Assembly (NCBI GenBank): GCA_965279565.1
Contig: OZ257249.1
Span: 3,644,750 to 3,708,749, forward strand
Source of the DNA: Tagaea sp.
GTDB lineage: Bacteria; Pseudomonadota; Alphaproteobacteria; CACIAM-22H2
Reading direction: 5' to 3'
Length of the DNA: 64,000 nt
Shown: positions 9,903 through 27,114 of the stretch, in pieces
Position numbering within the stretch: position 1 is the first letter of the stretch
How the letters are laid out: each line of letters begins with the position of its first letter
Translations under genes and position numbers: made by a program
Notes under the pieces: model-generated
What the model saw: only the letters and a program-made list of their open reading frames with translations
The model's database searches: none
What the model was told of the DNA's origin: nothing

Positions 9903-11726
<1,824 letters not shown>

Positions 11727-11728
11727 GC

Positions 11729-13114
11729 CTACTTGTCCTTTTTCTTTGCCGCTTTTTCCGCCGCACGGCGGTCGCGGAACTTCTTCGCCCAGCCCGGCGA
11801 CGTCGCCGGCTGGCCGCGCGCGACGACCAGCGCGTCTGCAGGAACGTCCTGCGTGACGACCGAACCCGCCCCGACCAGCGCGCCATCGCCGATCTTCACC
11901 GGTGCCACGAGCGCGCTGTTGGAGCCGACAAAGGCGCCGGCCCCGATGTCAGTATGGAACTTCTCGAAGCCGTCGTAGTTGCACGTGATCGTGCCGGCGC
12001 CGATGTTGGCCTTGGCACCCACGCGCGCGTCGCCGATATAGCTGAGGTGGTTCACTTTCGCGCCCGCCTCGACTTTCGCGTTCTTGATCTCGACGAAATT
12101 CCCGACATGCGCGTCCGGCCCGATGTCCGCCCCGGGCCGCAGCCGTGCGAACGGCCCGACGACGGCACCGTCAGCAACGCGCGTTCCTTCGAAATGGCAG
12201 AATCCCTTGATCGTCACGTCGCGGCCGATCGTGGTTCCCGGGCCGAATTGGACCGACGGATGGACGACCGTATCCGGACCGATGACCGTGTCATGGCTGA
12301 ACCAGACCGAAGCCGGATCGACCAGCGTGACGCCGGCCAGCATCGCTGCCTTGCGCGCGCGGTCCTGGAACACGGCTTCGAGTGCTGCCAGTTCTGCACG
12401 ATCGTTGGCGGCAAGCCAGTCTTCGGCCGTACCCTCGACCGCGCGCGCGTTGCGCCCGGCCTTGCGTGCGAGCGCCACCGCATCGGTCAGGTAGAATTCC
12501 CGCTGCGCGTTCGTCGGTTCGATGCGCGAAAGCAGGTCGAAGAAGCCTGCGCCGTCGAACGCCATCACGCCGGTATTGACGAGATCGATCTTCCGCTCGG
12601 CCGGGCTCGCATCCTTGGCCTCGACGATGCGCTCAAGCGTGCCGTCCGCCGTGCATACCATGCGCCCGTACGGCCCCGGGTCCGCGACGCGTACGCCGAG
12701 AACGCAGACCGCCGGCTTGTCCACCCCGCGCAGGCCGTCGCGCAGCCGACGGAACGTCGCGGCCGAGACGAACGGGGCATCGCCCAGCGCGACGACGATG
12801 TCGCCCTTGAAGCCGTCGAGCGCGCCCTTCGCCTGGAGTGCAGCGTGGCCCGTTCCGAGCCGGTCCCACTGGACGACCGCGTCGATCCGCAGAGCCGGTG
12901 CAGCGGCGCGCGCAGACGCGAGCACAGCATCCATGTCCGGGCCGACGACCAGCACGACGCGCGATGCGCCGAGGACGGCGAGTTCGGCCGCGATATGGCC
13001 GATCAGCGAGCGCCCGCCCACCTCGTGCAGCACTTTCGGATGCCTCGATTTCATCCGCGTGCCCTGGCCGGCGGCCAGGACGATGACGGCAAGATCGTTG
13101 TCGGGCGAGGCCAT
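11729..13114 (-). CDS. glmU: Bifunctional UDP-GlcNAc pyrophosphorylase / GlcN-1-P acetyltransferase
   Basis: LAAGQGTRMKS, GPFARLRPG, GNFVEIK, HLSYIGDA and CNYDG motifs; directly upstream of glmS. Confidence 0.97.
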   Translation of the reverse strand: MASPDNDLAVIVLAAGQGTRMKSRHPKVLHEVGGRSLIGHIAAELAVLGASRVVLVVGPDMDAVLASARAAAPALRIDAVVQWDRLGTGHAALQAKGALDGFKGDIVVALGDAPFVSAATFRRLRDGLRGVDKPAVCVLGVRVADPGPYGRMVCTADGTLERIVEAKDASPAERKIDLVNTGVMAFDGAGFFDLLSRIEPTNAQREFYLTDAVALARKAGRNARAVEGTAEDWLAANDRAELAALEAVFQDRARKAAMLAGVTLVDPASVWFSHDTVIGPDTVVHPSVQFGPGTTIGRDVTIKGFCHFEGTRVADGAVVGPFARLRPGADIGPDAHVGNFVEIKNAKVEAGAKVNHLSYIGDARVGAKANIGAGTITCNYDGFEKFHTDIGAGAFVGSNSALVAPVKIGDGALVGAGSVVTQDVPADALVVARGQPATSPGWAKKFRDRRAAEKAAKKKDK

Positions 13115-13205
13115 GCGTGCGATATCCCTTCCGAATCCGCGGGCACCTTTCCATACAGCGCCCCCGGGGCAAAATCACGAAATGTTGCGAGCCGTTACGG
13201 TCCAC

Positions 13206-17372: not shown

Positions 17373-18566
17373 ATGGAAGATACCGAACTCGAAGACGTCA
17401 AAAAGTATCTTGCGGCAACCAAGGCAGCCCTCGCCGGCGCGCCGCAGAAGCCGCACGACCTGTCGCACAAGAATCTCGCGAAAGCGAATTTCGAAGGCCG
17501 GTCGATGGTGCGCGCGCGCCTGATGGGCTCGAATCTCCGCGAAGCGCGACTTGCACGTGCGGAACTGACCGAGGCCGACCTGTTCGGCGCCAATCTTTCT
17601 TTCGCCGACATGAACGGCGCCAACTTGAGCGGCGCCGTGCTGCGCGGTGCCGCACTCAAGGGTGCCAACATGAACGGTGCCAACCTTGCCGGCGCCGACT
17701 TCCGTGGCGGCGTGATGATGGGCGCTTCCGGTACCGGTCGCATCGGGCTCGATGTGACCGACCTGACGGACTGCCTTGCGGAGTACGCCACGGCGTCGCG
17801 CGCGCAGATGGCCGGCGTCGACCTGTCGGGCGCGAGCTTCCAGGGCGCCAATCTCGAAGGTGCCATCCTTTTCGGCGCAAATCTCGCGAACACGAACCTT
17901 GCCTATGCCAATCTCCGTGGTGCCGACCTGTCGGATGCGCGGATGGGCAAGACGTCGCTGATCGGCGCCGATCTTTCCGGCGCCAAGCTTGCCAACATCA
18001 AGGCGGACGGGGCCAATTTCTCCGGTGCCAAGATGGCAAATGTCGAGATGAAGAATCTCGACCTCTCGAAATGCATCGTCGAGGCCAGCCCCCCGCTCGT
18101 CGGGCGCGACAAGCTGCCGGCAAAGCTTCGCACCGCACTCGACAGCCACGCCGAATGGCTGGCCTCGGTCGGAAAAAAAGGTGCCCCGGCGCATCTCGAG
18201 GGTGCCGATTTCAGCTATTTCGATCTTTCGGGGATCGATCTCAGCGGCGCCATCCTGCGCAACGCCAGATTCGTCGGAACGCGCCTGACCGGCGCCATCC
18301 TGCTTCTGGCCAATCTTCGCGGCGCCGACCTTTTCCATGCCGACCTGACCGGCGCCAAACTCCACGGGACGATGTTCGACGGCGCCAAGCTCCGCGAAAC
18401 CGACCTTGCGGACGCGATCGCCGGAACACTGCCGATCGCGAACAGCGACGGATCGCAGTCCAATCGCGCGCAGCCGACCAGCTTCATGCATGCCGACCTG
18501 ACCGGTGCGCGCGTCAAGGGCTTCAATATCGGCCACGCCAATACCGAAGGCGCCCGCCTTCCCTGA
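17373..18566 (+). CDS. Pentapeptide-repeat protein (two repeat blocks)
   Basis: Long A(D/N)LxG runs split by a helical segment (LDSHAEWLASVGKKGAPAHLEGADF). Start uncertain, 17268-17373. Confidence 0.9.
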   Translation: MEDTELEDVKKYLAATKAALAGAPQKPHDLSHKNLAKANFEGRSMVRARLMGSNLREARLARAELTEADLFGANLSFADMNGANLSGAVLRGAALKGANMNGANLAGADFRGGVMMGASGTGRIGLDVTDLTDCLAEYATASRAQMAGVDLSGASFQGANLEGAILFGANLANTNLAYANLRGADLSDARMGKTSLIGADLSGAKLANIKADGANFSGAKMANVEMKNLDLSKCIVEASPPLVGRDKLPAKLRTALDSHAEWLASVGKKGAPAHLEGADFSYFDLSGIDLSGAILRNARFVGTRLTGAILLLANLRGADLFHADLTGAKLHGTMFDGAKLRETDLADAIAGTLPIANSDGSQSNRAQPTSFMHADLTGARVKGFNIGHANTEGARLP

Positions 18567-18569
18567 CCG

Positions 18570-19688
18570 TCAGCTTGCCGGACGCACCAGCGTCAGTTCG
18601 GCGTGCTGCAGGCCGCAATAATAGGGATCGACCCCGTCGAGGAAGGCATTGAGCTTCATGTTGAAGCAGAAATGCTCGATGCCGTGCTTGTCGACGACGC
18701 GGATCTTCTGGCGCTGGAACCTGCCTTCGGGCATGCGGCGGCCGGTCAAATAGAGAGACGTCCGTTCGATCCGGTGCCCCATGACGGGAAGATCGATGAG
18801 GCGCGCGAGTCCGCCCGCGACGCGCTCGACGAACTGTTCCTCGTCGATCCAGACGCCGTTGACGTCGTCCCAGCGGTGGAACGCGCCGACGAGAATCTGG
18901 TCGGCCCGGCAGTTGGCGATGAGACGCGCGACCTGGATCGTCACGTCGCCGACGATGAACTCGTTGCGCCCGGTCCCGGCGCGGTCCGGCTGGTGGTAGT
19001 TGTAGTGACTGCCGATCCCGAGTGCCGCCCGCAGGATGGGAACGGCCTCGGGGACCGCCACCGAGCGGCGAAGTGCGGCGTGGAAGATCGCGAACAGCAC
19101 ATAGCCGAGGAACAGGTCGATGTCGGCTTCGAGCCCCTTGCGCTCGTTCCAGATATAGAAGCCATCGCCGGTCGTCGAACGGCACAGCTGGAATCCGATG
19201 TCGTGCGCAAGGGCCGTTTCGGCAGCGATGTTCAGCGCAAACTCGAGCGTGGCGAGCTGGCTCGCCTGCTGTTCGGGCAGCAATTTCGAGAATCCGACAA
19301 TGTCGAGCAGCAGCACGGCGCGCTGGTCTGTCTTTGTCACCGCAAAGGGCGCGAAAACCTCTTCGACGACCGAAGCTGCCGTCTGGCCCGGTCCGTCGCC
19401 GATCGTCTGGGTCAGGCGGATATCGAGAGCCCGCGACTGCAGCACCTCGGATACTTCTTCGAACGTCTTGTCGCCCATCTGGCGCGCGCCGACGAAAATC
19501 CGGCGCGGCGCGTCCTTCAGCGCAAACAGCCTGATCTTCGGCGCGGTGATGATTTCCATGCCGGTGGATGTCGGCCGCCAGCCGACGAGCGCGTTCGATC
19601 CGAAGCGCCACACGGAATAGAGCGTGCGGTGCAGTTCGGCGCGGATCTCTGGCGCGGTATCGGCGGAAGGGGCAATGTCTGTCGGCAT
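18570..19688 (-). CDS. Divergent class III nucleotidyl cyclase-like protein
   Basis: LLLDIVGFSK, STTGDGF, LRAALGIG, IVGDVTIQVARL and VVDKHG occur in cyclase order. Confidence 0.6.
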   Translation of the reverse strand: MPTDIAPSADTAPEIRAELHRTLYSVWRFGSNALVGWRPTSTGMEIITAPKIRLFALKDAPRRIFVGARQMGDKTFEEVSEVLQSRALDIRLTQTIGDGPGQTAASVVEEVFAPFAVTKTDQRAVLLLDIVGFSKLLPEQQASQLATLEFALNIAAETALAHDIGFQLCRSTTGDGFYIWNERKGLEADIDLFLGYVLFAIFHAALRRSVAVPEAVPILRAALGIGSHYNYHQPDRAGTGRNEFIVGDVTIQVARLIANCRADQILVGAFHRWDDVNGVWIDEEQFVERVAGGLARLIDLPVMGHRIERTSLYLTGRRMPEGRFQRQKIRVVDKHGIEHFCFNMKLNAFLDGVDPYYCGLQHAELTLVRPAS

Positions 19689-19805
19689 CGGAACGGGATT
19701 AAGAATACACGGAATTCGAGGAACGAAAACCGGTTCGTCCGGACATACATCGAAGAGAACAACCTTTTGTAGTCCTATATGCCGATAATTACATCGTTTT
19801 GCGGA

Positions 19806-20123
19806 TCATTCGACATCGAGTTCGACGAAGAACCCCCCGCCCGGCGGATCGGCAAGCGGTGCGAAGCTTGCGACCCGTTCGCGACGCCGGGCTTCGAGTA
19901 GGAACCTTCCGACCGGATGGAACAATGTCTCTCCGCCGCCGGGCACGGGCGGATCGATCCGGACCGCATAGCGGACCGGTCCCGGACGGACCGGTTCATC
20001 GACCAACCGCTTCAGGCGCGCGAGCGCTTCCGCCAACGCCAGGCCGCGAAGGTCGAGTTCCGCTTCGGCCGCATCACCATCGTGCAGCAAGTGACGCGCC
20101 TGTTCGGGATCGAGATGCGGCAT
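19806..20123 (-). CDS. Small Smr-like domain protein (degenerate)
   Basis: ELDLRGLALAEALARL resembles the Smr LDLHG-helix. ATG 20123 overlaps the GT stop (TGATG). Confidence 0.55.
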   Translation of the reverse strand: MPHLDPEQARHLLHDGDAAEAELDLRGLALAEALARLKRLVDEPVRPGPVRYAVRIDPPVPGGGETLFHPVGRFLLEARRRERVASFAPLADPPGGGFFVELDVE

Positions 20124-21394
20124 CAGAGCCCTGCCCGCACGGAATCGAGCACTCTGCCGAATCCCTCGACCCAGGGTGCAATGGCATGGTTGCGCGCGAC
20201 GTGGGCGCGGCCGGCACGCGACAGCGCCAGCCGGTGCACGCGATCGCGCGCGAGTTCGTCCATTGCGGCGACGAGATTGGCGGCGAACGTCGCGTCGTAG
20301 GATTTCATCATCGGCTCGAAGGTCTGGTTGAGGAAACCCCACTGGTCGTACCACGAAGTCTTGCCAAGGCGTCCCTTCACCGCGATCCCGGTCTCGCCGT
20401 CAGCGACGAACTCGTCGACTGCCGGCGCATCCGACGCGATGGTTGCCGCACCGCAGGCCATCGCCTGCAGCAGCGATACCGTGTGCAGCCCGCAGGACGG
20501 GATCAGGAACACATCCGCGCGCAGGAACAGGTCGACGAAATCGCCGAACGCCAGCTTCGTGTCGACGATCTCGACATTCGGGATCGAGCGCACGAACTTC
20601 TCGAAGTCCGGCCCGAAGAGTTTCGGAATCTGCGTGCGCAGGATCAGGCGACATTCCGGCCGGCGCGCGACGAGCGTGCCGAACGCAGCCAACGTCTCCA
20701 TCCCGCCGCGCAGCACGAAACTTTCGTCGTGCTGGCCCCACGAGTTCGTGAACAGGAACGTGCAGCCCGAACGTCCCGCGCGGGCGTCCTGCGCTGCATC
20801 GATGCGCGCCTGGATTTCGGGCGGGAAGTCGATGCCGAACGGAATGTAATGGGATTTTTCCTGGATCTTCGGGCTGTCGAACAGCTTTCCGATGAATTCG
20901 TGGCTGTGCCGGAGATGCGACGAAACGGCACGGCAGCGATCGCTTTCGAGCATGGCCCGCACGAGCGCCCAGACAGGCATCGACCGCACGTCGGCATTGG
21001 CTGTCTTGCCGTGCCACAGGAACGGAGCGAACAGCGTCATGAGCTCTTCGATATGCGCGAGCCAAGGCCGCTGGCCGAACACGAAAGGCATCGAGTGCGG
21101 CAGCGTCAGGTCCGGCTCCGCGGCGGCGATCTGTGCCTGGCTTTCGATATCCCGGCTTTCGGCGAACTTCACCACCGCCTCGCGTGGCACGCCGGGAACG
21201 GCGGCGGCAAGCTCAGCGACCAGCGCTTCGCGCTCCGCGAGCGCCTGCACGCGGTGCGCTTGGGTGGGTGCCGGCATGTCGAGAAGGAACTCGTAGCCGG
21301 CGCGCGGCGCAAGCAGGCTCGTCATCATCGGATGGTCGCCGCCGAGCCATTGGAAGATCGGCGTGCGCCAGGGTGCGGCAACGCGGTAAGTCAC
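20123..21394 (-). CDS. Glycosyltransferase, GT-B fold (GT4-like)
   Basis: ADVFLIPS, LLQAMACGAATIASD and GETG motifs. GTG 21394 forms a GTGA overlap with the upstream stop. Confidence 0.8.
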   Translation of the reverse strand: MTYRVAAPWRTPIFQWLGGDHPMMTSLLAPRAGYEFLLDMPAPTQAHRVQALAEREALVAELAAAVPGVPREAVVKFAESRDIESQAQIAAAEPDLTLPHSMPFVFGQRPWLAHIEELMTLFAPFLWHGKTANADVRSMPVWALVRAMLESDRCRAVSSHLRHSHEFIGKLFDSPKIQEKSHYIPFGIDFPPEIQARIDAAQDARAGRSGCTFLFTNSWGQHDESFVLRGGMETLAAFGTLVARRPECRLILRTQIPKLFGPDFEKFVRSIPNVEIVDTKLAFGDFVDLFLRADVFLIPSCGLHTVSLLQAMACGAATIASDAPAVDEFVADGETGIAVKGRLGKTSWYDQWGFLNQTFEPMMKSYDATFAANLVAAMDELARDRVHRLALSRAGRAHVARNHAIAPWVEGFGRVLDSVRAGL

Positions 21395-22383
21395 GCGCGG
21401 TCGCCCAGCCGCAATTCGACCTGGGCCGCGGTCGGTACCATCGCGGGGCGCGCGCGCATCGTCGCATGCAGGTCGCAGGTTCCCACGCCCGGCCGATAGA
21501 CTGGCTTGGGTGACGCGACGGCATAGGGGACCGGCGCCGTATCGCCGCCGCGCGCGAAATCGTCGCGCAGCAGCGTCGCGTATTCGAGGTTCCAGGTCGC
21601 CTGCTCCATCAGCGTTTCCTGCGGCAGCGTCGGCCGGTGGCCGGCCGCGCGCGCCACGCAGGCGAAACGGACCAGATGGTCGCCCGCAGGCAGCCAGCAC
21701 GCGTCGAGCGGCATCAACTTCAGGAAGCGCAGGAAATGGTCGAGCAGCGGAATCGTCGGAAACCAAGTGTCCGACGGGCCGAGCACGTAGCCCGTACCGG
21801 CGAAGTTGTACTGCATCATGTAGGCGTCGAGCGGCAGTGCTGCCGTCTCGATCACCATTAGGCCGCCGGGCCGCAGCGCACTGCGCGCCGAGGCAAGGAC
21901 ATGGAACGGCGAGAACACGTGATAGAGCACGCCCGAGCAGATCACGACGTCGAACCCCTGTCGGGGTTCAGGTGCGCCCGTATATCGGTGGCGGGTGATC
22001 TCGCCGGCGTGACGCTCCTCCAGCGCGCGCAGCAGCGAACCGGACATGACGTTCGGCAGATACGCGAAGTCGGCGTCGTAGGCTGCCTTGACGCAGGCGA
22101 TCTTGTCGGAGAAATCAAGGCCGTCGACCGCGACGACGTCCGCGGCTCCCCGCCGCTTCAGCAGCACCGGGACGAGTCCTTCCATCGTTCCGATGTCGAG
22201 GCACCGCGTGCCCGCAAGGTCGATGCGCGAAATCAGGTCGCGCGTCAGCGCGACGTTCGGGAAGCGTTGCCCCGGCGTGACGATCCCGTCGCCAAGCTCC
22301 ATCGCGTAGTACCAGTACTGTCCGAGGAACGAACGCTTGCGTTCTTCGCTCGCAAGCCAGGGAAGTCCGGTCACGTCGATCAC
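21391..22383 (-). CDS. Class I SAM-dependent methyltransferase (CmoB/DUF1698-like)
   Basis: WYYAMELGDGIVTPG, RCLDIGTMEG, FDVVICSGVLYH and PGGLMVIET motifs. GTG 22383 forms a GTGA overlap. Confidence 0.82.
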   Translation of the reverse strand: MIDVTGLPWLASEERKRSFLGQYWYYAMELGDGIVTPGQRFPNVALTRDLISRIDLAGTRCLDIGTMEGLVPVLLKRRGAADVVAVDGLDFSDKIACVKAAYDADFAYLPNVMSGSLLRALEERHAGEITRHRYTGAPEPRQGFDVVICSGVLYHVFSPFHVLASARSALRPGGLMVIETAALPLDAYMMQYNFAGTGYVLGPSDTWFPTIPLLDHFLRFLKLMPLDACWLPAGDHLVRFACVARAAGHRPTLPQETLMEQATWNLEYATLLRDDFARGGDTAPVPYAVASPKPVYRPGVGTCDLHATMRARPAMVPTAAQVELRLGDRA

Positions 22384-23360
22384 TCCGCCTTGATTCGGGA
22401 CCAGCGCCGGATGGCGCCGGGATTTTCGACAAGCGTCCGCCTGTACCACGCGACGGTCGCCGCGAGTCCGGCTTCGAGGTCGGTATAGCGGTGTCCGGAA
22501 AGCGCGACGAAGGCCGAATTGTCGGTCACGCGCCGGTCGATGCCGCGCGCACGCGACGGATCGAAACGGATCCGATCCTCCGGCACGCCACACAGACGGG
22601 CAAGAACCATCGCGACCGACCGGATCGTCTGCGCCTGTCCGCAGCCGACATTGAGCAGGTCGGCGGACGAATGGTTGGCAAGGCACCACATGTAGGCGCG
22701 CGCCATGTCCGGCGCATAGGTGATTTCGCGCAGCGGGCTGCCATCGCCCCAGATGGAAAGATCGCCGGCCGCCGGCGTCCATTCGCAGAAGCGCCGGACG
22801 AGACCGGCGATCCACGTGCAGTCGTCCGGGTTGTAGTTGTCGTCCGGCCCGTAGATGCCCGAAGGCACCAGTCCGATCACGTCGAGCGAATGCTCCGCGC
22901 GGTAGGCGCGGATCGCAGGCTCCATCAGCCGCTTGGCCATCGCGTAGGAATAGGCGGTTTCGTGCGGCAACCCTTCGTGGATCTGCTTCTCGGTGTTCGG
23001 CTGGGGGGCTTCCGCCGGATACATGCCCGACGACAGCGTCAGCACGACCTTGTCGAGCCTGTGCGCCACGGCCGCATCGAGGACGGCGAAGCACATCGCG
23101 ACATTGTCGCGCAGGATGCGCGCGGGATAGCGCCGGGCGAGATCGATGCCGCCGGAGATCGCGGCAAGGTGGATGATCCTGCGAATGCCTTCCCGACCGA
23201 CGAAATCGTGCACCGCGCGGGCATCGGTCAGGTCGAGGATCCGGCGATCGGTGAAGACGAACTCGTGGTCGGCATGTGATTGCGCGAGCCCGACGAAGGC
23301 CGCACCCAGTACGCCCGTCGATCCCGTCACCAGCAGTCGCGGGCGCCGGCCAGCCGACAT
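22380..23360 (-). CDS. GDP-L-fucose-synthase-like extended SDR (NDP-4-keto-sugar reductase)
   Basis: VTGSTGVLG, HLAAISGGI, YAMAK (YxxxK), IYGPDDNY and IWGDGSPLRE motifs. Confidence 0.85.
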   Translation of the reverse strand: MSAGRRPRLLVTGSTGVLGAAFVGLAQSHADHEFVFTDRRILDLTDARAVHDFVGREGIRRIIHLAAISGGIDLARRYPARILRDNVAMCFAVLDAAVAHRLDKVVLTLSSGMYPAEAPQPNTEKQIHEGLPHETAYSYAMAKRLMEPAIRAYRAEHSLDVIGLVPSGIYGPDDNYNPDDCTWIAGLVRRFCEWTPAAGDLSIWGDGSPLREITYAPDMARAYMWCLANHSSADLLNVGCGQAQTIRSVAMVLARLCGVPEDRIRFDPSRARGIDRRVTDNSAFVALSGHRYTDLEAGLAATVAWYRRTLVENPGAIRRWSRIKAE

Positions 23361-23361
23361 C

Positions 23362-25380
23362 CTAGAAATGCCCGGCGAGGTGCCGTGCCAGCGCCTTGTT
23401 TCCGTAGAGATAGGCACCCTTCTTGTTGCCGTACCAGACCACTTCGCGGCACCAGTCGGCGAATACCGGCCAGGGTTCCTTCGAACGCTCGATGCGGTAG
23501 GCGACCGGCTCCTCGACCAGTTCCTCGCTGCGCCCTTCGAGGATCGCGCGATAATAAGGGTAGAGATCGCTGCCGAGACGCACTTCGATGTCGGCAAGGA
23601 CGCCCGGTTCCTTGACGAGCGCGCGGTTCAGGCGGAACGCGTCGGCGACGGTCTCGCGCGGCACGAGCGATCGGTGCTCGGAGATCGACGACAGGACGAG
23701 GCGTTCGGCCTCGGCATAGAACGCATCGAGCTTCCCGCCCGCGACGAGGTCGATGAACACGTACTCGTCCGCCGGCCAGTGGATGCCGAGCCATTTTTCC
23801 GAGAACACGTATTCGACGGCGCCGTCCTGGATCTGGCGGGCATAGTCGTCGAAGAACGCGCGGATCGCGCCGATGACGGGATAGTCGGCGGCGTCGGCAC
23901 GGAAAAACGCCTCGAGCAGACGACGGAATGGCACACCGCATTTCTCGTGCGCGACGAGGATCGGGATCTGCAGCAGCTTGTTGTAGTGGATCAGCGCCGT
24001 CATCCACGCGAAGCTGCGCGCCCTGCGCCAGTCGGCAGCGGGCATCGACGCCGTCTCGACGACCAGATCCTGCGTCTCGTAGATGCCGTCGGGATCGACG
24101 TCGATCGAACCGTGGATGTTGACGATCTTCGTCACGACCGTCCGCATGCCGTACTTCTCCTGATAGGCAGGATCGCCCATCTCGGCGTTCGGCAGAATCG
24201 ACAGGTTGTTGAACTGGATGCGGTTGTGCTGGCCGTTGTCCATCAGCCAGCAGACCCCGTCGACCCACGAATCGTAGGTCTCACCCGGCAGACCGAGAAT
24301 GAGGTCCGAATAGGTCTCGACGCGGTCACGCGTGAAGCGGCGCTGCAGTTCCTCGTAGGTGTCGAGCGCGATGTTCTGCCGCTTGATCGCCTTCAGCGTG
24401 CCGGGATCGAGCGACTGCATGGAGAGCGTGACGCCCTTGTTCATGCCGGCGTCCGACAGGATCTTCTGCGTGAGGTAGGCGCGGTCGGTCGCGTTCTTCG
24501 TGTTCTGGACGGACACCGCCTTCGGATAACCACGCTCGGCCTTCGTCCGGGCGAGCGATTCGGCGAGCTGGATGTCGCGCGCGAGGATCCCGAAATTCGC
24601 GTCGCAGCAGAAGATGAACTCGATCTTCCGGTCGGCGAACCAGCCGATCTCGCGGTCGAGGCGCGCAAGATCGAACTGGAAGACCTTTGCCTGCGTCGCG
24701 GAGCCCCAGTCGCAGAACGTGCACTGGAACGGGCAGCCGCGGTTGGTCTCCCACAGGACGATCCAGTTTTCCTGCGGATTGGCCGCCATCAGCGGATCGA
24801 ATATTCCTTCGAGGTAGGGCGACGGAACATCGTTGAGATCGCGGATACGCGGCCCCTTCGCCTGGCAGACGAAGGCGCCGTCGCGCACATACGAGAGGTT
24901 CGCGATGCCCGACCATTCGCGCGACGGCCAGGCTTCGAGCAGCTTCGTGAACGCATGCTCGCCTTCGCCGTTGATCGCGACGTCGATGAACGGGTTCTCG
25001 CGCAGGAACGGCTCGGTCCGGTCGGGGACCTGCGGTCCGCCGAACACGATCAGGATTCCAGGCTTGCGCCTTTTAAGCTCCCGCGCGACCGCCAGCGACA
25101 GCTTGACGTTCCAGACATAGGTGGAGAAGCCGACGACGTCGGCCTCGATAAGCTGCTCGACTGTCTCGGCGACGCGCTGGCGCTTGTAGACCGGGAGCAG
25201 GAACTCAAAGCGCGCAGGTGCCGCGGCGAACTTGCGCACATAGCCCTCGATCAGGCCGACCGCGTAGGGCAGGTAATTCTGCCCCGAAAAGCTGTTGTTG
25301 ATCTGGATGAGACCGATCTTGCACGGCGTGGCGGCGTGTGGGGGCAAAGCCGTCGCTCCAGTCTGGACTTGCGGGTTCAT
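23362..25380 (-). CDS. Cobalamin-dependent radical SAM enzyme
   Basis: B12-binding region (YLPYAVG, DVVGFSTYVWN, VFGGPQV, GEGE) and CxxxCxxC in ETNRGCPFQCTFCDWG. Alternative start 25446. Confidence 0.92.
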   Translation of the reverse strand: MNPQVQTGATALPPHAATPCKIGLIQINNSFSGQNYLPYAVGLIEGYVRKFAAAPARFEFLLPVYKRQRVAETVEQLIEADVVGFSTYVWNVKLSLAVARELKRRKPGILIVFGGPQVPDRTEPFLRENPFIDVAINGEGEHAFTKLLEAWPSREWSGIANLSYVRDGAFVCQAKGPRIRDLNDVPSPYLEGIFDPLMAANPQENWIVLWETNRGCPFQCTFCDWGSATQAKVFQFDLARLDREIGWFADRKIEFIFCCDANFGILARDIQLAESLARTKAERGYPKAVSVQNTKNATDRAYLTQKILSDAGMNKGVTLSMQSLDPGTLKAIKRQNIALDTYEELQRRFTRDRVETYSDLILGLPGETYDSWVDGVCWLMDNGQHNRIQFNNLSILPNAEMGDPAYQEKYGMRTVVTKIVNIHGSIDVDPDGIYETQDLVVETASMPAADWRRARSFAWMTALIHYNKLLQIPILVAHEKCGVPFRRLLEAFFRADAADYPVIGAIRAFFDDYARQIQDGAVEYVFSEKWLGIHWPADEYVFIDLVAGGKLDAFYAEAERLVLSSISEHRSLVPRETVADAFRLNRALVKEPGVLADIEVRLGSDLYPYYRAILEGRSEELVEEPVAYRIERSKEPWPVFADWCREVVWYGNKKGAYLYGNKALARHLAGHF

Positions 25381-25664
25381 TTCGCGCGCGGTCTCCGTAT
25401 CGTTCCAGTGTGTCCGGCCCGGCGCTTCTCGCCGATCGTCCAGCACCTCGTTCGCGATTAAACCAAAATATCTAAAATCCGATTAACTTACCCATAAATA
25501 TCTGAGGGATATGGAATTTCTAACGGTAAGGTTAAATGAAACTCAACATGCGCAACAAGGGGGCATTTTTGGCCTGCCCGTTTTTTCGTCACGCCGACGT
25601 CGATTGATTTCGGGCGCCGCGTTCTGCTAGCAACAGTCGCAAGGGCGTTGCGGGGAGAGAACGT

Positions 25665-26417
25665 TTGCCGGATTACATCCTGGAAACCGAAGGGCTGACG
25701 AAGGAGTTCCGCGGCTTCATCGCGGTCAACGGTGTTTCCCTCCAGGTCCGCCGCGGCACCATCCATGCGCTGATCGGGCCGAACGGTGCGGGCAAGACGA
25801 CCTGCTTCAATCTGCTGACGAAGTTCCTCGATCCGACGCGCGGCGCCATCCGCTATAACGGGCGCGACATCACCGGCGCCAAGCCTGCCGACATCGCGCG
25901 CATGGGCCTCGTGCGCTCGTTCCAGATATCCGCCGTGTTCCCGCACCTGAGCGTGATCGAGAATGTCCGCGTGGCGCTGCAGCGCAAGCGCGGCAACTCG
26001 TTCGATTTCTGGCGCAGCGAGCGGGCACTCGATGAGTTCAACGAGCGCGCGCGCGAACTGATCGAATGGGTGGGCCTGTCGGATTTCGCCGAGACGACCG
26101 CGGTCGAGATGCCGTACGGCCGCAAGCGCGCGCTCGAGATCGCAACGACGCTGGCGCTCGAGCCCGAGATGATGCTGCTCGACGAGCCGACCGCAGGCAT
26201 GGGCCACGAAGACGTCGGCCGCATTTCCGCACTTATCAAGCGGGTCGCGCAGGGCCGCACCGTCCTGATGGTCGAACACAATCTTTCGGTCGTCTCCGAC
26301 CTTTCAGACACGATCACCGTGCTCGCACGCGGCGAGGTTCTTGCCGAAGGCGACTATGCCGCCGTCTCGAAGAACCCGGACGTCGTGCAGGCCTATATGG
26401 GTGCCGGACATGGCTGA
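25665..26417 (+). CDS. Branched-chain amino acid-type ABC transporter ATP-binding protein (LivG-like)
   Basis: GPNGAGKTT, MPYGRKRALE, LLDEP and VEHN motifs. Confidence 0.93.
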   Translation: MPDYILETEGLTKEFRGFIAVNGVSLQVRRGTIHALIGPNGAGKTTCFNLLTKFLDPTRGAIRYNGRDITGAKPADIARMGLVRSFQISAVFPHLSVIENVRVALQRKRGNSFDFWRSERALDEFNERARELIEWVGLSDFAETTAVEMPYGRKRALEIATTLALEPEMMLLDEPTAGMGHEDVGRISALIKRVAQGRTVLMVEHNLSVVSDLSDTITVLARGEVLAEGDYAAVSKNPDVVQAYMGAGHG

Positions 26418-27114
26418 GCCGATGCTGGCCGTCCGCGGTCTCAACGCGTGGTACGGCGAAAGCCATATCCTGCACGGCGTCGATCTCGACGTCCGGCAGG
26501 GCGAAGTCGTCACGATGCTCGGCCGGAACGGTGCGGGCAAGACGACGACGATGAAGTCGGTGATGGGCCTCGTCGGAACGCGCAAGGGCTCGGTCCGCTA
26601 CGAGGGCAAGGAAACGATCGACCTGCCGGCGTACCGGATCGCGCGCCAGGGCATCGCCTTCTGCCCGGAAGAACGCGCGATCTTCGCCTCGCTCGACGTC
26701 GCCGAGAACCTGATGCTGCCCCCCGCGGTCGGCCCGGGCGGCATGTCGGTGGAAACGATCTTCGAGCTTTTCCCCAATTTGAAGGAACGGCTTTCGAGCC
26801 AGGGCACGAAGCTCTCGGGCGGCGAACAGCAGATGCTGGCGATCGCGCGCATCCTGCGCACGGGCGCGCGTCTGCTGCTGCTCGACGAGCCGACCGAGGG
26901 GCTTGCCCCGGTCATCGTCCAGCAGATCGGGCACACGATCCGCCGCCTCAAGTCCGAAGGTTTCACGATCCTGCTGGTCGAGCAGAATTTCCGCTTCGCG
27001 GCCACGGTCGCTGACAGGCACTACGTCATGGAGCACGGGCGCATCGTCGACGAAATCGCCAACGACGCACTCGAGGCGAACATGGGCAAGCTCCACGAAT
27101 ATCTCGGCGTCTGA
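26410..27114 (+). CDS. Branched-chain amino acid-type ABC transporter ATP-binding protein (LivF-like)
   Basis: GRNGAGKTT, LSGGEQQML and LDEPTEGLAP motifs. Confidence 0.93.
   Translation: MAEPMLAVRGLNAWYGESHILHGVDLDVRQGEVVTMLGRNGAGKTTTMKSVMGLVGTRKGSVRYEGKETIDLPAYRIARQGIAFCPEERAIFASLDVAENLMLPPAVGPGGMSVETIFELFPNLKERLSSQGTKLSGGEQQMLAIARILRTGARLLLLDEPTEGLAPVIVQQIGHTIRRLKSEGFTILLVEQNFRFAATVADRHYVMEHGRIVDEIANDALEANMGKLHEYLGV

Follow-up and report, generated by a model that had tools for sequence, protein, structure and literature searches.

Positions 19806–25380 of a 64,000-nucleotide stretch of the Tagaea sp. genome (contig OZ257249.1; hereafter the window) carry five minus-strand genes that are predicted to encode a cobalamin (vitamin B12)-dependent radical S-adenosylmethionine (SAM) enzyme (rSAM; 23362–25380, 672 residues), a short-chain dehydrogenase/reductase (SDR; 22380–23360, 326 residues), a methyltransferase (MT; 21391–22383, 330 residues), a glycosyltransferase (GT; 20123–21394, 423 residues), and a small Smr-fold protein (19806–20123, 105 residues). 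This gene combination is undescribed, lineage-restricted, and modular rather than a fixed pathway, and we propose with moderate confidence that it constitutes a lineage-specific, modular glycan-tailoring locus. The TokK-like rSAM would form the stable core; its most likely reaction is C-methylation at an unactivated carbon of a sugar, or of a sugar nucleotide, whose synthesis genes lie elsewhere in the genome. An exchangeable accessory module of SDR, MT, and GT would sit between the rSAM and the Smr-like gene, which probably belongs to the chromosomal backbone. Within this module, the Fcl-derived SDR is predicted to reduce a nucleoside diphosphate (NDP)-4-keto sugar without epimerizing it; the MT, a SAM-dependent enzyme of the CmoB fold, probably methylates the sugar at an oxygen or nitrogen atom; and the GT, a soluble GT-B enzyme, would pass a sugar to an acceptor that faces the cytoplasm. 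Flagellin or another protein, a lipid-linked glycan produced by other loci, and a small molecule are candidates for this role, and a cytoplasmic acceptor would fit because flippase, polymerase, and exporter genes are absent within ~10 kb. All substrates, the acceptor, and the sequence of reactions are inferred.

Distribution and modular composition of the locus

An earlier annotation of the window from its sequence (the original prediction) treated the four enzymes as a single unit not recognized from a characterized pathway. Full-text literature searches agree on the latter point, returning no matching described pathway; they also yielded nothing on the gene combination itself, nor on cobalamin-dependent radical SAM enzymes in connection with O-antigen C-methylation, the aldo-keto reductase (AKR)/GHMP/heptose gene set, or flagellin glycosylation. 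Co-conservation of the set holds in part: the full set is kept together, but within one genus-level lineage only, among the matches listed. The closest of these are Tagaea-like Rhodospirillales metagenome-assembled genomes (MAGs) with rSAMs 77–96% identical to that of the window, and all five genes were seen only with rSAMs of at least 77% identity, in this Tagaea-like freshwater and groundwater genus. The same set is not retained beyond close relatives, and losses and replacements occur even inside the ≥77% group.

The cassette always occupies one chromosomal site, between an ABC importer and a conserved gene for a 372-residue protein with msrA. Loci of homologs compared here are designated by L numbers. 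All five genes are present in the window and in L007, L008, L014, L019, L051, L098, L101, and L102. An extra FkbM-family methyltransferase gene (311 residues, reverse strand) lies between rSAM and SDR in L013 (12016–12951) and at the same place in L016. L092 lacks the SDR (rSAM-MT-GT), and L099 lacks the MT (rSAM-SDR-GT). The MT is also missing from L017, a single MAG in which the tctC and tctB transporter genes and two domain-less open reading frames (ORFs) take its place between SDR and GT (L017:7076–11175), a replacement that could be a genuine insertion or an assembly artifact. Finally, L001, L021, and L094–L096 carry only the rSAM and the small gene. These variants at the same site are at odds with the single four-enzyme unit originally envisaged.

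The rSAM is retained through these changes. In the loci without SDR, MT, and GT, its gene is intact and under strong purifying selection (dN/dS 0.06–0.12 at dS ~0.6). Between L092 (6906–11592) and L013 (10001–16551), the rSAMs are 96% identical, the MTs 62%, and the GTs 55%, and L092 has no SDR; recombination between the conserved flanks has thus exchanged the central genes, an allele replacement of the kind usual in variable surface-glycan loci. Read by parsimony, the rSAM tree most simply has the five-gene state as ancestral and the shorter forms as derived.

This mosaicism bears on a stricter alternative, in which one borrowed NDP-4-keto-6-deoxy sugar passes in a linear pathway from C-methylation by the rSAM through reduction by the SDR and methylation by the MT to transfer by the GT, all four enzymes being needed. 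The tight gene overlaps, the retention of the full set down to 77% rSAM identity, and the ancestral five-gene state speak for such a pathway. It is nonetheless rather unlikely in our estimation: relatives lacking the SDR, the MT, or all three genes keep a selected rSAM, MT-GT alleles have been swapped independently of the rSAM, and the locus contains no dehydratase. An obligate four-enzyme pathway is further argued against by the tiny size of the GT family, which includes stand-alone members. We therefore retain the modular reading as the preferred one.

Protein families and predicted activities

The families assigned in the original prediction (B12-dependent rSAM, Fcl-like reductase, methyltransferase, glycosyltransferase, and Smr-like protein) are all upheld by domain, PDB, and fold matches, and its sugar-tailoring theme draws support from the enzyme families together with the sugar context of their homologs. 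The rSAM contains an N-terminal B12-binding Rossmann domain (Pfam PF02310, 49.1 bits against a cut-off of 32.1) and a radical SAM domain (Pfam PF04055, 39.4 bits against 29.5). Its cluster motif, CPFQCTFC, provides the CX3CX2C cysteines (C216, C220, and C223) and is invariant across 25 homologs. TokK, a C-alkylase that acts on a ring carbon, is the strongest PDB match (phmmer E = 1e-103), aligning over residues 35–492 with the B12 domain included from residue 35, and CysS ranks second (E = 1e-66). The best NCBIfam match is the KedN5 subfamily (NF033712); the score of 268.7 bits falls below the cut-off of 700, placing the rSAM outside that subfamily, and the match spans profile positions 52–399 of 624. 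These matches identify the rSAM as a predicted cobalamin-dependent (class B) radical SAM enzyme of the TokK/CysS/KedN5 type, for which methyl transfer is the expected reaction. Its translation start is ambiguous, with an ATG at 25380 that has GGAG 12 nucleotides upstream and a GTG at 25446 with GAGG immediately adjacent; the L092 rSAM is called in a longer, 694-residue form.

The SDR aligns over its whole length with the GDP-fucose synthase of E. coli (Fcl/GMER, PDB 1E6U/1BSV; E = 3e-44) and keeps the reductase triad, Ser107, Tyr136, and Lys140 in the alignment to the E. coli enzyme. The acid/base pair needed for 3,5-epimerization is lost, Cys109 being replaced by Gly and His179 by Thr. The same residue pattern, with the triad kept and the Gly/Thr pair in place, occurs in 18 of 18 orthologs, down to 64% identity, which argues that the SDR is a fixed reductase-only derivative rather than a decaying gene. 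We accordingly classify it as an Fcl-family SDR, predicted from these residues to be a reductase without epimerase function. It scores 187.9 bits against the NCBIfam Fcl equivalog, whose cut-off is 500, and MoeE5 is a weak PDB match. Thus, full-length alignment and the catalytic triad link the SDR to Fcl/GMER, whereas the replaced Cys109/His179 pair and the lack of a nearby Gmd set it apart; in function it is presumably nearer to enzymes that only reduce, such as the GDP-heptose C4 reductases of Campylobacter. A different pattern is seen in Fcl-like SDRs that adjoin the rSAM in L035, L040, L042, L044, L045, L057, L062, and L082, where the His179 equivalent is kept, the catalytic Tyr is changed to Ala, and Cys109 is lost. 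These proteins may be non-reducing derivatives, with an epimerase-only or binding role.

The MT matches Pfam Methyltransf_23 (49 bits) and shows weak similarity to CmoB in the PDB (E = 1e-7), consistent with its assignment as a class I SAM methyltransferase with a predicted CmoB-like fold. Its distant homologs, at 40–51% identity, lie in glycan loci in four of the four contexts examined. Three of these contexts include a radical SAM gene, which directly adjoins the MT homolog in two cases and is two genes distant in the other. The context at 51% identity combines DUF1217, two B12 radical SAM genes, a tetratricopeptide repeat (TPR)-GT41 gene, E1 alpha/beta, DegT, and SDRs. In another, a SPASM radical SAM gene adjoins the MT homolog, and Maf-like and CMP-sugar genes are nearby; in a third, the radical SAM gene is two genes off and the locus includes an E1 gene and a TPR-GT41 gene. 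The fourth is an O-antigen/exopolysaccharide locus with Wzm/Wzt and Wzz.

CysS and KedN5 both extend methoxy groups (PMC9204698). Together with the pairing of distant MTs and radical SAM genes, this raises the possibility of O-alkyl extension, in which the MT would add an O-methyl group and a CysS/KedN5-like rSAM would methylate that carbon to give an O-ethyl or O-isopropyl sugar. KedN5 as the top NCBIfam match and CysS as the second PDB match favor such a scheme. Several lineages keep the rSAM without the MT, however, the fixed partner of the wider rSAM family is an aldo-keto reductase rather than a methyltransferase, and TokK is a much stronger match than either enzyme. We judge O-alkyl extension to be highly improbable.

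The GT matches Pfam Glyco_trans_1_4 (38 bits), and its AlphaFold2 model (pLDDT 93, pTM 0.91) displays the two Rossmann domains of a GT-B fold. In a Foldseek search, 380 PDB entries matched at E ≤ 0.001, with GT4 enzymes at the top and GlgM, MshA, TreT, BshA, WaaG, and PimA as the nearest structures. The EX7E motif is not preserved: the first Glu is absent, and the window protein has Q at the second position, where the family varies among E, Q, and R. A PS[CV]GLH motif is invariant in the family, which is rare, with 34 homologs among 5.8 billion proteins. The model thus predicts a GT-B glycosyltransferase of a divergent, GT4-like type.

The best structural matches of the GT (GlgM, MshA, TreT, BshA, and sucrose-phosphate synthase) belong to the soluble GT4 enzymes and use small acceptors. 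The product of the module could accordingly be a small-molecule glycoside of the cytoplasm, for example a natural product, a methylated solute, or a thiol-like cofactor, instead of a surface glycan, a view with which the lack of a nearby flippase, polymerase, or exporter and the stand-alone occurrence of GT homologs at 46–47% identity would also agree. The Foldseek TM scores are only 0.5–0.6, however, and WaaG, PimA, and PglA are comparable; the distant MT and rSAM homologs occur in polysaccharide or flagellin-glycosylation contexts, and allele replacement fits a surface structure under diversifying selection. For these reasons, we consider a small-molecule product unlikely and continue to favor a glycan-tailoring role.

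The small protein has no match to any Pfam family, including the Smr model at E ≤ 0.01. Its predicted structure (AlphaFold2, pLDDT 79) nevertheless adopts an Smr fold according to Foldseek, which retrieved SmrB, the MutS2 Smr domain, and the B3BP Smr domain with probabilities of 0.98–1.0 (1.0 for SmrB and MutS2) and TM scores to SmrB and the MutS2 Smr domain of 0.57–0.72, the highest being to 2ZQE. The catalytic motifs are degenerate, with an invariant LDLRG in place of LDLHG and DPPxPGxGET in place of the HGxG loop. Compared with the Smr nucleases (the MutS2 C-terminus and SmrB), the predicted fold is alike, but the small protein is degenerate and stands alone at 105 residues. The family comprises ~110 clusters at 50% identity. 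In ~70 metagenomic loci with Smr-like homologs at ≤53% identity, the other four genes are absent nearby and there is no conserved neighbor; none of these homologs adjoins any of the four enzymes, and the gene, listed with them in the original prediction, is thus not specific to their pathway. The small gene therefore looks like a passenger of the chromosomal backbone, onto which the cassette has probably become translationally coupled. The unlinked homologs also rule out the rSAM and the Smr-like protein as functional partners or as a RiPP-like (ribosomally synthesized peptide) precursor pair. Separately, the profile of the small protein matches 28 distinct stretches of the 2264-residue protein P0160 (E = 8e-82), all at approximately profile positions 42–81; P0160 may be a giant repeat protein of that segment, or the matches a compositional artifact.

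Locus structure and flanking regions

All four gene junctions reported in the original prediction were reproduced. The TAG stop codon of the rSAM (23364–23362) is separated by one base from the ATG of the SDR at 23360. SDR and MT overlap by GTGA (SDR TGA with MT GTG at 22383), as do MT and GT (MT TGA with GT GTG at 21394), and GT and the small gene overlap by TGATG (GT TGA with the small-gene ATG at 20123). Since the GC content of the window is ~66%, it contains many long spurious ORFs. Each of the five genes is under purifying selection relative to its orthologs, however (dN/dS 0.09–0.5), which indicates that all are genuine rather than chance ORFs of GC-rich DNA. A genomic-island signature was considered and rejected, as the GC content of the locus (0.62–0.66) is similar to that of the flanking DNA.

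The AT-rich intergenic region at 25381–25664, which separates the rSAM gene from divergent liv-type ABC transporter genes, is the presumed promoter region. It contains no consensus sigma-70 site, and no consensus promoters or terminators exceeded the shuffled background. RNA elements preceding the rSAM gene, a cobalamin riboswitch among them, were also considered and rejected, as positions 18000–27000 gave no Rfam match at E ≤ 1. A search for transcript evidence found that the sequencing runs containing the locus are low-depth metagenome DNA, with no RNA run among them.

Downstream, the gene for the 372-residue protein (18570–19688, minus strand) begins 117 nucleotides beyond the small gene and has no Pfam match. 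Relatives carry copies that are 74–92% identical in the corresponding place downstream of the small gene, even where the locus has just the rSAM and the small gene; it is a backbone gene, possibly co-transcribed with the operon. The neighborhood further comprises the liv-type ABC importer, msrA, a HAD hydrolase, DUF3108, glmU, and glmS. The glmS (GATase and two SIS domains) and glmU genes lie at 9903–13174 on the same strand, 7–10 kb downstream of the operon. Because the relatives L008 and L092 also carry glmU, that gene belongs to the conserved backbone and not to the cassette; glmS is counted as conserved backbone as well. The absence of Gmd, flippase, polymerase, and export genes noted in the original prediction is confirmed for ~10 kb around the operon.

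The wider rSAM family and related systems

The rSAM is not unique to the five-gene set. It belongs to a very large family that normally occurs in a different nucleotide-sugar cassette. A word-based search scored ~7,900 homologs, mostly ~60% identical and full length, and a genome scan gave at least 594 confirmed matches. Full-length homologs at 53–62% identity have a mean column identity of 71%. In a comparison of 85 rSAM neighborhoods, 71 of them with rSAMs in this identity range, an aldo-keto reductase gene follows the rSAM directly in 59 (median spacing 5 nucleotides), and E1 alpha/beta (thiamine pyrophosphate), GHMP kinase, NTP-transferase/HAD fusion, DegT, and SDR genes recur nearby. The hosts of this rSAM-AKR cassette include Alpha- and Betaproteobacteria, Planctomycetota, Nitrospirota, Cyanobacteriota, Verrucomicrobiota, and Elusimicrobiota, and its gene content points to a nucleotide-sugar pathway, probably heptose-derived. 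Examples are L005, L035, L042, L080, and ~55 further loci, with the rSAM at ~10001–12000, from at least seven phyla; one carrier, Enhydrobacter aerosaccus ATCC 27094 (L042), is in culture. In the rSAM tree, the Tagaea proteins make up a long-stemmed (0.58 substitutions per site), well-supported clade whose placement relative to the AKR-linked clades is not settled by the tree.

FlmG-like TPR-GT41 genes lie within 10 kb of the rSAM in ~10 loci. FlmG is the flagellin O-glycosyltransferase of Caulobacter (PMC7591256). In L048 (653–18369), a flagellar locus surrounds an SDR-rSAM pair: an FkbM methyltransferase, three FlmG-like TPR-GT41 genes, and a GT4 gene lie upstream, fliK-flgD-flgE follow directly downstream, and a fourth TPR-GT41 gene lies beyond.

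These contexts also bear on whether the rSAM is related to its neighbors at all. It might act on a non-sugar substrate, the SDR, MT, and GT genes having been inserted between backbone genes and read through. The rSAM, the small gene, and the 372-residue protein gene do behave as backbone, at 81–96% identity, while the central genes vary, and the long stem of the Tagaea clade would be compatible with a divergent function. Yet more distant small-gene loci have no rSAM at this site, so the rSAM is not an old part of the backbone; its relatives almost always occur in sugar loci, and the distant MT homologs themselves occur with B12 radical SAM genes. We regard an unrelated rSAM as very unlikely and return to the glycan-tailoring locus as our working model.

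Several points nevertheless weigh against that model. The 64-kb window contains no dehydratase gene that could provide a 4-keto sugar, and it has neither flagellar nor TPR-GT41 genes. In the GT, the canonical glutamates of the EX7E motif are lacking, and its nearest structures act on small soluble acceptors. Co-transcription of the five genes is presumed from their overlaps. Finally, because the Tagaea clade is long-stemmed and lies outside the usual cassette, the substrate of the rSAM may have changed.

A more specific and decidedly speculative extension is that the rSAM and the exchangeable MT-GT(-SDR) genes build a strain-variable, B12-dependent sugar, either C-alkylated or bearing an O-ethyl or O-isopropyl group, and that this sugar is added to a protein, flagellin or a different one, within the cytoplasm. 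To our knowledge, cobalamin-dependent radical SAM methylases have been characterized almost solely in antibiotic, cofactor, and lipid pathways. If such a sugar exists, cobalamin radical chemistry would be a general and hitherto unrecognized means by which bacteria diversify their protein and surface glycans. No reaction has been assigned to the rSAM family itself, which is very large, highly conserved (~60% identity across phyla), and situated in nucleotide-sugar loci. A natural series of variants is available in the Tagaea locus, with the rSAM alone, with MT-GT added, and with SDR-MT-GT added. Comparing the glycans of these variants could reveal the chemical feature that each gene contributes and would tie vitamin B12 availability to the structure of cell-surface or flagellar glycans.

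Among characterized enzymes, TokK/ThnK (carbapenem C6 alkylation, PDB 7KDX) and CysS/KedN5 (methoxy extension) share with the rSAM a common architecture of an N-terminal cobalamin-binding Rossmann domain, a CX3CX2C radical SAM barrel, and a C-terminal cap. The last ~180 residues of the rSAM are unmatched, and the known enzymes belong to beta-lactam or polyketide/peptide clusters, whereas the context of the rSAM is sugar metabolism. A review of class B radical SAM enzymes lists sugar C-methylases from antibiotic pathways only (PMC9204698). Of these, GenK/GenD1 (gentamicin) and MoeK5 (moenomycin) set a precedent for B12-dependent radical C-methylation of carbohydrate carbons near glycosyltransferases and SDRs (PMC9204698), but they fall in other sequence clusters, belong to actinomycete antibiotic pathways, and gave no sequence match to the rSAM in NCBIfam or PDB searches. 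The rSAM-AKR cassette differs from the window in its partners, as the window has no AKR, E1 alpha/beta, GHMP kinase, NTP-transferase/HAD, or DegT genes. The FlmG-type islands of Caulobacter differ as well, since the 64-kb window has no flagellin gene besides lacking TPR-GT41 and flagellar genes, and its GT carries no TPR domain. The likeness to these islands lies in the homologs of the rSAM and MT, which occur beside TPR-GT41 genes, FkbM methyltransferases, and flagellar hook genes, in systems where glycosylation is cytoplasmic and a flippase is not needed (PMC7591256).

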